From IMG/VR virus record IMGVR_UViG_2703718824_000007, positions 1-4,548 of that record: a stretch of DNA of 4,548 nt. One strand, written 5' to 3'. Of this stretch, positions 3,001 to 4,548 are shown in pieces; positions within the stretch are counted from its first letter, which is position 1, and each line of letters opens with the position of its first letter. A program made the position numbers. Source of the DNA: a virus (Duplodnaviria > Heunggongvirae > Uroviricota > Caudoviricetes).

Positions 3001-4548
3001 CTCAATGGCGTTAACCCGGTCGCATTTCCCCTTCGACAGCTTCATGCCAGGAATAACAGGCTTACCATCCACCCGGGTGGCTCCACGGCAGATGGTCCAG
3101 ATACCCGCACCATCACGGTATGCCGTGGTGTGGTTACCTTCTTTTTCATCCAGAAACTGGTCGAGGATTTCAGGCGCCGAAGCCCCTGCGGCAATCAGCG
3201 CCAGAACAGCAGCTGACAGGCCGTATTTGATTTTTGCGTTCATGGATATATTAAATATTCAGCCGCTGTCCCTGGCCCACTAAATACGCACTTTAAGATA
3301 AGTCAGCCCCGGCTGGATCCAGTTATCAGGCTCAGTCTTAAAGGGTGGAGTATTGAAATCACGAAGAACGGTCTCCCGCACAACTGCATCCTTATCAGCA
3401 CCACTGGCCAGCGCTTCAATCTCAGCGGCTACCTGCAGATACCCCATGCAACGACCAATGCGCTGCATCAGCCCCTGTTTTTTATTGTTCTTCAGGTAAT
3501 CAATGGCAAATTCAATGAGCTCCTCACTGTGCTGGTGCGATGGAGGTGTTACTTTCCCATTTTCTGAGATGGTTATTTTCACACCATCACCGGATACAAC
3601 AAAGGATGGCCGGTTACACTCCCATTCCAGCTCACTGAAATTATCATTATGAATACTGAAACACTCTGCGAGATTTCTGCTCATCACTTTCCGACAATAA
3701 TCGTCAAACGCAGCAAACTGCTCATCGCGGCGTTTTTTTTCATCTTCAGAAGGCATCAGCGTCGACAGTTTTTTATTCAGTTCAGCAATTTCATTTTCCA
3801 GGCGACTGAAGCGCTGATTCATTTCTTCATGGTTCATTATTCACTCTCCCCGGGCGGCCTTACGCCGGTCCTCTTTGATTTTGAAATACAGGTTCGTCAG
3901 ATATGTCAGCAGACCAAACAGCAGACTCCCCAGCACGCCTATTGCCGCCCACTGAGACGGGGAAACCCTGTCCAGCAACTGCAGGAACCAGTAGCCCGTT
4001 CCCACCGCTGACGTGGTGTATGACACACCTGTTGTGATTTTTTCCATCTGGTACATACCCCGTCTCCCGCAATCCGGAAGCTCACAACATGAAAAAGGCC
4101 AGCAGCAGTTTACTGATGGCCCTGCCCCCCGTTACAGCATCATGACCGATTCGGGTTGCGGTTCAGTCGCATCGGCGACCGGTGATTCAGGCTGAACTTC
4201 ACCGCTCTCTGCGGTGGTATCTCCCGCTTCAGTCGCTGGCTCTGCCTGTACACCAAGCAGCTCATCCAGAATGGCATCCACTTCTGCATCAAGACGCGCT
4301 TCCAGGTTATGGCGAAGTTTCTGTTTCAGTGCGCTCAGGACTTCTTCAGAGCGCAGGACTTCCTTCACTGCCTCTGCAGTGACCAGGGATGTAATTTCTG
4401 ACATGGGATTTTCTCGTTGAAAGGGGTTATTAAGGAGTAATGGGCTCTTCGGGTTTGCTTCCGGCTGACTGACTGGCGCTGATTTTCTCTGCGGCCCTTT
4501 TATCAATCTGCCTGCGCCAGCAATCGCGCACTGCCCTGTACCCACCCG

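Follow-up and report, generated by a model that had tools for sequence, protein, structure and literature searches.

A YdfR-associated gene without DUF1327 between the pinholin and endolysin genes of an Escherichia coli lambdoid prophage

The DNA analysed here (the window) comprises the 4,548 nucleotides at positions 1 to 4,548 of the IMG/VR virus record IMGVR_UViG_2703718824_000007 (Caudoviricetes), and every gene in it is carried by the minus strand. We refer to the open reading frame (ORF) at 3280-3837 as X, to the holin as S, to the endolysin as R, and to a gene of about 105 residues that belongs to PHROG 1853 as Y. The original prediction had described X as an uncharacterised 185-codon gene inserted between a pinholin and a signal-anchor-release (SAR) endolysin, and both the gene and its place were confirmed: the frame is intact and annotated in RefSeq, PF04971 was matched by the gene upstream, and PF00959 was matched by the gene downstream (Table 1). 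S of the window contains Met1 and Met4 as possible dual starts, and its DNA is 97.7% identical to that of S from phage 933W. The N terminus of R is Gly/Ala-rich with the SAR-like segment YGLSAAVLALIAAGASA, and an E-8-D-5-T motif was recognised by direct reading of the sequence.

An identical coding sequence was present in RefSeq (WP_062876850.1, E. coli FHI_NMBU_10, 'hypothetical protein'), and the exact protein was found on 505 contigs of a public collection with the frame intact. X-like DNA was detected, in part, in 892 of 5,426 complete E. coli genomes (about 16%) and nearly full-length in 234 of them (about 4%), with up to five X-like places per genome. For four 185-codon alleles, the ratio of nonsynonymous to synonymous substitution rates (dN/dS) was 0.25-0.31, and nonsynonymous changes were below the neutral expectation (P 0.003 to 5e-5); the ratio was 0.2-0.4 in each half of the gene. 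X is a real gene under purifying selection. The last 39 codons (residues 147-185; window 3283-3399) had a dS of 0.38-0.69, as against 0.06-0.07 in the body of the gene, with a dN/dS as low as in the rest; positive selection in this variable tail was tested by dN/dS, and none was found. Because the dS of these codons is about ten-fold above that of the rest of X, the allele of the window is considered to have a recombinant 3' end. Its tail (TEPDNWIQPG) agrees with that of the 209- and 213-residue forms described below, the usual tail of the 185-residue form being KVPAYWLHPG.

The S-X junction reads GGGGAGAG-TGA-ATA-ATG on the coding strand, where the TGA at 3841-3843 is the stop codon of S and the ATG of X follows 3 nt later. 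In 933W, the same GGGGAGAG element (1494-1500 of locus L017) serves R, which starts 4 nt after the stop of S; the junction is GGGGAGAGTAAGCTGATG followed by R in 933W and GGGGAGAGTGAATAATG followed by X in the window. X had been credited with a strong ribosome-binding site of its own. The strong site inside the holin 3' end and the spacing of the ATG stood, but the site is not X's own, because it is a conserved element of the holin 3' end that serves R in 933W. X has thus taken the place of R behind the holin-embedded ribosome-binding site. The spacer between X and R is AT-rich at its 3' end, and no purine-rich Shine-Dalgarno sequence for R was seen in it; therefore, translation of R in the window may be weak, or it may be coupled to that of X. 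Since neither a promoter-like site nor a terminator-like site on the minus strand was detected when 2600-4548 was scanned, S, X and R are placed in a single late transcript. X, being behind the ribosome-binding site that elsewhere drives R, is predicted to be made whenever the holin is made, which agrees with the original expectation that it is produced together with the lysis proteins.

The sole family match of X was phrog_1085, which is annotated as of unknown function (E 7.9e-109, 364.6 bits). Residues 1-185 were aligned to positions 117-296 of this 296-position profile, and the first 116 positions (the DUF1327 part) were left uncovered. No match to PF07041 (DUF1327; gathering score, 25 bits) was obtained in X even at E <= 0.1; a 329-residue relative scored 151.8 bits on the same profile. 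The similarity between X and the DUF1327 proteins of 287-329 residues (84% identity over 98% of the query) covers a coiled-coil module and a C-terminal module (the C domain). When DUF1327, the coiled coil and the C domain are denoted A, B and C, respectively, K-12-like YdfR consists of A only, and the genes found between S and R (the S|R slot) are combinations: A+B in PhiR12_1 (169 aa), A+C in gp05 of Stx2 phage 86 (268 aa; RefSeq, 'YdfR family protein'), A+B+C in Stx2_95 (329 aa), and B+C in both Stx2_12E129 (213 aa) and the window (185 aa). In Stx2_14744 and Stx1_499 the slot gene has this coiled coil, DUF1327 being either present or absent, and behind it an unrelated module at the C terminus. 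This module (about 100 residues, RIQKNRERSANSEIL...FFLKVER) is encoded within L005 2501-2986 and L006 2186-2977, and about 500 bp of unannotated DNA lie between the slot gene and R there, representing another allele of the cassette. A Col-Pyo DNase identity for the protein with this alternative 'module D' was rejected, as the weak match lies in the coiled coil.

By homologue search, forms without DUF1327 (185, 209, 213 and 217 residues) and forms with it (259, 268, 287 and 296 residues) were obtained, nearly all from E. coli. The start MNHEEMNQRF... is common to the four forms without DUF1327 and to many different alleles, the coiled coil of X has diverged from that found behind DUF1327, and Salmonella also has coiled-coil plus C-domain forms without the N-terminal domain (P0161 and P0164-P0166). 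For these three reasons, X is not regarded as a one-off truncation; it is the smallest version of a modular family and consists of the coiled-coil hairpin and the C domain, and the S|R slot appears to be a recombination hotspot that holds this family. The protein and the family are thus already catalogued yet uncharacterised, and from these comparisons the form in the window can be placed as a DUF1327-less variant of the YdfR-associated genes of the slot.

The original prediction had mentioned a small gene at this position of some cryptic lambdoid prophages; we take it to be ydfR of Qin on the K-12 map, and the annotation of phage 86 agrees. This gene lies between the holin gene essQ and the lysozyme gene rrrQ, in the slot of X, which DUF1327-family genes also occupy in phage 86, L031 and PhiR12. 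YdfR (PF07041) has 103 residues with the N-terminal domain only and no C domain, X is without DUF1327, and the two are related through shared modules only. The gp05 protein of phage 86 and the Stx2_95 protein are closer, with C domains 82-89% identical to that of X and the same place after an S21-type holin, but they have 268-329 residues and an N-terminal DUF1327. Phage 86 differs from the window also in that gp05 is without the coiled coil and that the convergent gene Y (gp06) is present. The search of the literature on ydfR, DUF1327 and inserts at the holin and endolysin of Shiga toxin (Stx) phages yielded one functional study, on YdfR (PMC13232886), and nothing on C-domain proteins or Y. 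That study reported, from two-hybrid and pull-down experiments, that K-12 YdfR, which is DUF1327 alone, uses its residues 1-72 to bind RNase G as well as RNase E, the latter at its catalytic half; YdfR co-purified with RNA, and overexpression of ydfR was not toxic, had no effect on growth and little effect on the transcriptome (PMC13232886). These residues 1-72 have no counterpart in X. The available part of a survey of Stx-phage lysis cassettes contains no discussion of genes between S and R (PMC8136144).

A hidden Markov model search of 1.8 billion representatives gave 42 matches to the X family, three of which (P0136, P0143 and P0157) were long repeat proteins and were judged spurious after inspection. 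The relatives read individually came from E. coli, Salmonella or metagenome contigs, and a word-indexed search named no source outside Escherichia and Shigella other than Salmonella enterica. Of 50,697 phage records, 346 matched a 901-base S-X-R query; most of the listed records matched the holin part only, and 20 of the 346 encode any relative of X. Note that the contig scan for X (single peptide pattern, 3 loci) has little weight beyond Escherichia and Shigella. From these searches, PHROG 1085 appears to be a mosaic family restricted to prophages of E. coli, Shigella and Salmonella.

X has a mass of 21.4 kDa, an isoelectric point of 5.35 and a grand average of hydropathicity of -0.69, and is hydrophilic and soluble by prediction. 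No transmembrane segment was found (maximum 19-residue Kyte-Doolittle mean, 0.76). When 23 sequences, the Salmonella relatives among them, were aligned as input, the AlphaFold2 model of X reached a mean predicted local distance difference test score (pLDDT) of 78; with an earlier shallow alignment it was only 60.8. The first helix shows a clean a/d heptad pattern over residues 6-27 (M6, F10, L13, I17, L20, L24 and L27), and module B is probably an oligomerisation module of leucine-zipper-like type. In the model, residues 55-70 form a disordered acidic linker, and the C domain consists of a three-stranded beta-meander (80-97), three helices (101-117, 123-144 and 151-161) and a conserved tail (pLDDT 64-75). 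Its motifs are H103, GRCMGyLQvAAEIE (128-141) and DFxxPPFK..P..W..PG..YLK.R. All core positions of PHROG 1085 are present in X (H103, G128, R129, G132, L134, Q135, A137, E139, P165, K167, W173, P176 and Y180), and the core of the C domain is conserved in the Salmonella and metagenome relatives down to 30% identity. Searches of X against Pfam, NCBIfam and PADLOC gave noise only, with matches to bMERB (E 0.048) and DegQ (E 0.05) treated as such. The best PDB-sequence profile match of the C domain, a PhoU homologue (E 0.018), covered a helical stretch and was judged spurious, and no Pfam, NCBIfam, PADLOC, PDB-sequence or fold match was obtained for this domain. In PADLOC-DB 2.0 there was no defence-model match for X, its longer relatives or Y; in the Pfam and PHROG scans X matched no lysis-category, holin or antiholin family; and no match to toxin-antitoxin families was found, nor a partner gene in the window, X and Y elsewhere being adjacent but convergent. 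The earlier description of X as a soluble protein without a recognised motif is supported by these data, and the proposed check by family and structural-neighbour searches gave no homology to a characterised family.

Gene Y (gp06 of phage 86 and its homologues; PHROG 1853 is annotated as of unknown function) has no Pfam or PADLOC match and was found in E. coli and Salmonella only. Each of the 14 loci examined has Y tail-to-tail with a directly neighbouring X-family gene, the two being -18 to +20 nt apart. Six of these loci were found starting from X and cover the full divergence of the C domain. For the other eight, the search began from Y and used four independent Y clusters, and each Y adjoins an X-family gene (gap, -4 to +20 nt) whose product matches the C-domain profile with E 1e-44 to 1e-55. 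Y was thus never seen at the 14 loci without an adjacent X, and X was often seen without Y (the window, L001, L004, L010, L012, L014-16 and L018-20). By tblastn, Y was found neither in the window nor in 18.5 kb of the nearest prophage, L001. Y was detected in 90 complete E. coli genomes, as against the 892 with X-like DNA, and a simple promoter scan in phage 86 showed no clear promoter for it. When the spacers before R were compared among the window, phage 86, PhiR12, Stx2_95 and L016, the spacer of the window matched the distal part of the Y-R intergenic region of phage 86, and in that of L016 the leader of R was joined to a retained piece of Y, its final ~11 nt; the forms with X alone therefore resemble products of deletion.

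The E. coli loci examined all have their X-family gene exactly at the S|R junction, 3-4 nt behind the stop of S, and in them R is left with an AT-rich leader; the cassettes involved all have a class II holin and a lysozyme. In 933W, R is directly behind the near-identical holin, with no X between them. In Salmonella prophages the homologue of X occupies the interval from the Q antiterminator to S, with HicAB or ParE/helix-turn-helix modules as neighbours; a convergent gene and an intergenic gap separate it from S, and S and R overlap as usual. X and Y are kept in a widespread decayed Salmonella prophage (L027/L028, 1-6321), from which S and R are gone. HicAB, RelB/ParE, DUF826 and fragments of Q and Rz are also left in this prophage, and its Y protein is listed in 76 collection blocks, of which 24 contigs were read. 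Because the holin of 933W is found without X, the Salmonella homologues are upstream of S, and the X-Y pair survives in L027/L028, a core lysis role for X is disfavoured. Among the roles suggested in the original prediction, lysis timing is thus disfavoured by the genomic context, and that of defence or anti-defence cargo may still apply, although PADLOC gave no match.

Table 1 Positions of the features of the window and of gene Y in other loci (L numbers); helices and pLDDT are those of the AlphaFold2 model
Feature	Position	Strand	Remarks
X	3280-3837	-	ATG, 185 codons, TAG stop; PHROG 1085; annotated 'hypothetical protein' or 'Phage protein'
X module B (residues 1-60), predicted helical hairpin	3658-3837	-	helices 3-27 and 31-60, pLDDT 70-89
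X C domain (residues 72-185, ~110 residues)	3283-3624	-	compact in model, pLDDT 78-95 over 72-160
S, S21-type class II holin (pinholin), 71 aa	3841-4056	-	PF04971 Phage_holin_2_1 'P21 holin S', E 7e-33; holin PHROGs
Shine-Dalgarno element GGGGAGAG	3844-3851	-	inside holin 3' end, 6 nt before X ATG
X-R spacer, 36 nt, TGGGCCAGGGACAGCGGCTGAATATTTAATATATCC	3244-3279	-	from X stop to R ATG (3243)
R, SAR-type endolysin, 177 aa	2710-3243	-	PF00959 Phage_lysozyme, E 7e-25; phrog_7 endolysin
Ant-like gene (P22-Ant-like)	1866-2435	-	family matches
Small hydrophobic ORF, ~49 residues	about 1717-1869	-	RefSeq: hypothetical
Dam-type adenine methylase	829-1596	-	PADLOC MTase_II, E 6e-92
Rz	317-820	-	family matches
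Rz1, embedded in Rz	406-591	-	family matches
DUF826 gene	stop at 4132, likely ATG at 4404	-	90 aa if that ATG
Y in L002	2673-2987	+	
Y in L007	3154-3468	-	
Y in L008	4722-5039	-	
Y in L021	436-759	-	
Y in L022	495-812	-	
Y in L024	2378-2713	-	
Y in L025-L032			further loci

Taken as a whole, the window shows 97.5-98.5% identity to prophages of E. coli strains IBS28 and FHI_NMBU_10. The sole stretch that did not align to the closest prophage (L001, 97-98.7% identical elsewhere) is 4090-4241, the 3' part of the DUF826 gene; the DUF826 ORF of the window is longer than the RefSeq version (81 aa). No RNA family was found in the window by the Rfam scan. A second interruption of the lysis cassette separates R from Rz and is made up of the Ant-like gene, the hydrophobic ORF and the Dam-type methylase. 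In Stx1_499, Ant and the small ORF are present and the methylase is absent, and Salmonella L008 has a different methylase at this junction. Because Ant, the small membrane ORF and the methylase also split R from Rz, the junctions of the cassette are regarded as general sites for cargo.

We give about an even chance to the reading of X as a non-essential accessory ('moron-type') gene that an E. coli lambdoid prophage carries in its late operon and that does not belong to the holin-endolysin system. The identity and the context parts of this reading are those observed above, and from the model we infer the binding mechanism: X would oligomerise via its leucine-zipper-like N-terminal helix, and the C domain, with its invariant GRCMG..LQ..AE helix and its PPFK..W..PG..YLK tail, would bind a cytoplasmic partner late in the lytic cycle. 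The context points to no partner other than Y; with Y absent from the window, the target of X there would belong to the host or be a Y-like protein provided in trans. X resembles the late-region morons (stx, nanS-p, bor, and toxin-antitoxin cassettes downstream of Q), which are likewise non-essential cargo in or beside Q-S-R-Rz, and the homologue in the Q-to-S zone of Salmonella beside HicAB/ParE, as well as the cassette of the window with its Ant and Dam inserts, is moron-like. Classical morons, however, have their own promoter and terminator; for X neither was found, and it is placed behind the holin like a lysis gene. Several points weigh against this reading. The functional literature found covers no member that carries the C domain. 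Oligomerisation and partner binding are drawn from a medium-confidence AlphaFold2 monomer (pLDDT 78; tail, 64-75) and from gene neighbourhood. Y would not be a general partner unless it acts in trans, because it is present in 90 genomes and X-like DNA in 892. The seizing of the holin-embedded ribosome-binding site, with R left without an obvious Shine-Dalgarno sequence, also fits a modulator of lysis, and part of the positional pattern could be due to lineage effects among prophages.

Dedicated regulators of lysis, such as the S21-71 antiholin, T4 RI/RIII and P1 LydB, are small proteins produced along with the holin from genes within or beside the lysis cassette, and X is like them in position and in the role that the position suggests. 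It is accordingly conceivable, though in our judgement unlikely, that X modulates the timing of lysis by tuning holin triggering, release of the SAR endolysin or translation of R; binding to the cytoplasmic C-terminal tail of S would be one conceivable way, and displacement of R from the ribosome-binding site, which would lower the synthesis of R, another. The location of the E. coli genes exactly at the S|R junction, behind the Shine-Dalgarno sequence that drives R in 933W, the AT-rich leader left to R, and the constant association with a class II holin and lysozyme would all fit. On the other side, no similarity in sequence or fold to the above regulators was found and X has no membrane segment; unlike a dedicated regulator, X is dispensable for a near-identical holin, which works in 933W with R directly adjacent, and the Salmonella homologues, upstream of S with a convergent gene and a gap between, are not tied to the holin. 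X and Y moreover persist where S and R have been deleted, and other occupants of the slot have unrelated C-terminal modules or consist of DUF1327 alone, which would be unexpected for a tuned partner of lysis. A further candidate role is in RNA metabolism, where X, in the manner of its DUF1327-bearing relatives, would act on RNase E and RNA decay late in infection, alone or hetero-oligomerised via the common coiled coil with DUF1327 paralogues of other prophages in the cell. Proteins of 287-329 residues combine DUF1327 with modules B and C, a genome may have up to five X-like places, and the DUF1327 protein YdfR binds RNase E and RNase G through residues 1-72 and co-purifies with RNA (PMC13232886), but X is without this RNase E-binding domain, overexpression of ydfR had little transcriptome effect and no growth effect, and hetero-oligomerisation is pure conjecture; we hold this role to be decidedly improbable. 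That X is a decaying piece of a longer YdfR-family gene, carried passively and functionless, is a reading to which we give very little credence: DUF1327 and Y are both missing, the spacers resemble deletion scars and many members of the family are truncated or partial, but it conflicts with the selection data, the dN/dS of 0.2-0.4 in each half being well under neutrality; moreover, 505 contigs carry the intact frame, several forms have the start MNHEEMNQRF... in common, the coiled coil has diverged, and Salmonella independently has forms without the domain.

The asymmetric dependence between the two genes, with Y always beside X (14/14 loci, eight of them found from Y alone) and X often alone, suggests an orphan antidote or counter-defence function. 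Y would be toxic or anti-phage in the lysogen, and X, made late, would neutralise Y for the phage's own lytic cycle; we consider this rather unlikely. The further proposal that X alone lets a phage grow in hosts with Y-bearing prophages seems to us similarly doubtful. The tight convergence (-18 to +20 nt), the retention of X and Y together with toxin-antitoxin modules in the decayed Salmonella prophage, the last ~11 nt of Y in the L016 spacer with solo forms that look like deletions of Y, and the extensive shuffling of X (up to 5 X-like places per genome) are consistent with it. These have to be set against the lack of any PADLOC, Pfam or PHROG function for X or Y, of a Y promoter in the simple scan, and of a sign of positive selection in dN/dS. 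Late expression would also be late for counter-defence, the toxicity of Y is only postulated, and the neighbourhood equally fits Y as a mere regulator of X. Because Y runs antisense to the late operon, its expression in the lysogen, as with other morons, is plausible. An extended form, in which X and Y constitute an undescribed two-gene system of the late or lysis region in enterobacterial lambdoid prophages, with Y as the effector, X as the neutraliser for self-immunity, solo X as counter-defence and an optional DUF1327 as a link to RNase E, is in our estimate an unlikely one. The reading of X as accessory cargo is the one that we prefer.

Cargo in a lambdoid lysis cassette would be a small surprise to lysis specialists. 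In Stx-type prophages, the moment of lysis, and thereby that at which toxin and virions are released, is determined by the holin-endolysin cassette, so a protein made from a holin-embedded ribosome-binding site in about 4% (nearly full-length) to about 16% (in part) of complete E. coli genomes is worth placing. If X affects neither lysis nor immunity, it would be ordinary prophage cargo; if X and Y are an effector-antidote pair, they would represent a new kind of prophage self-immunity or counter-defence module inside the lysis cassette.

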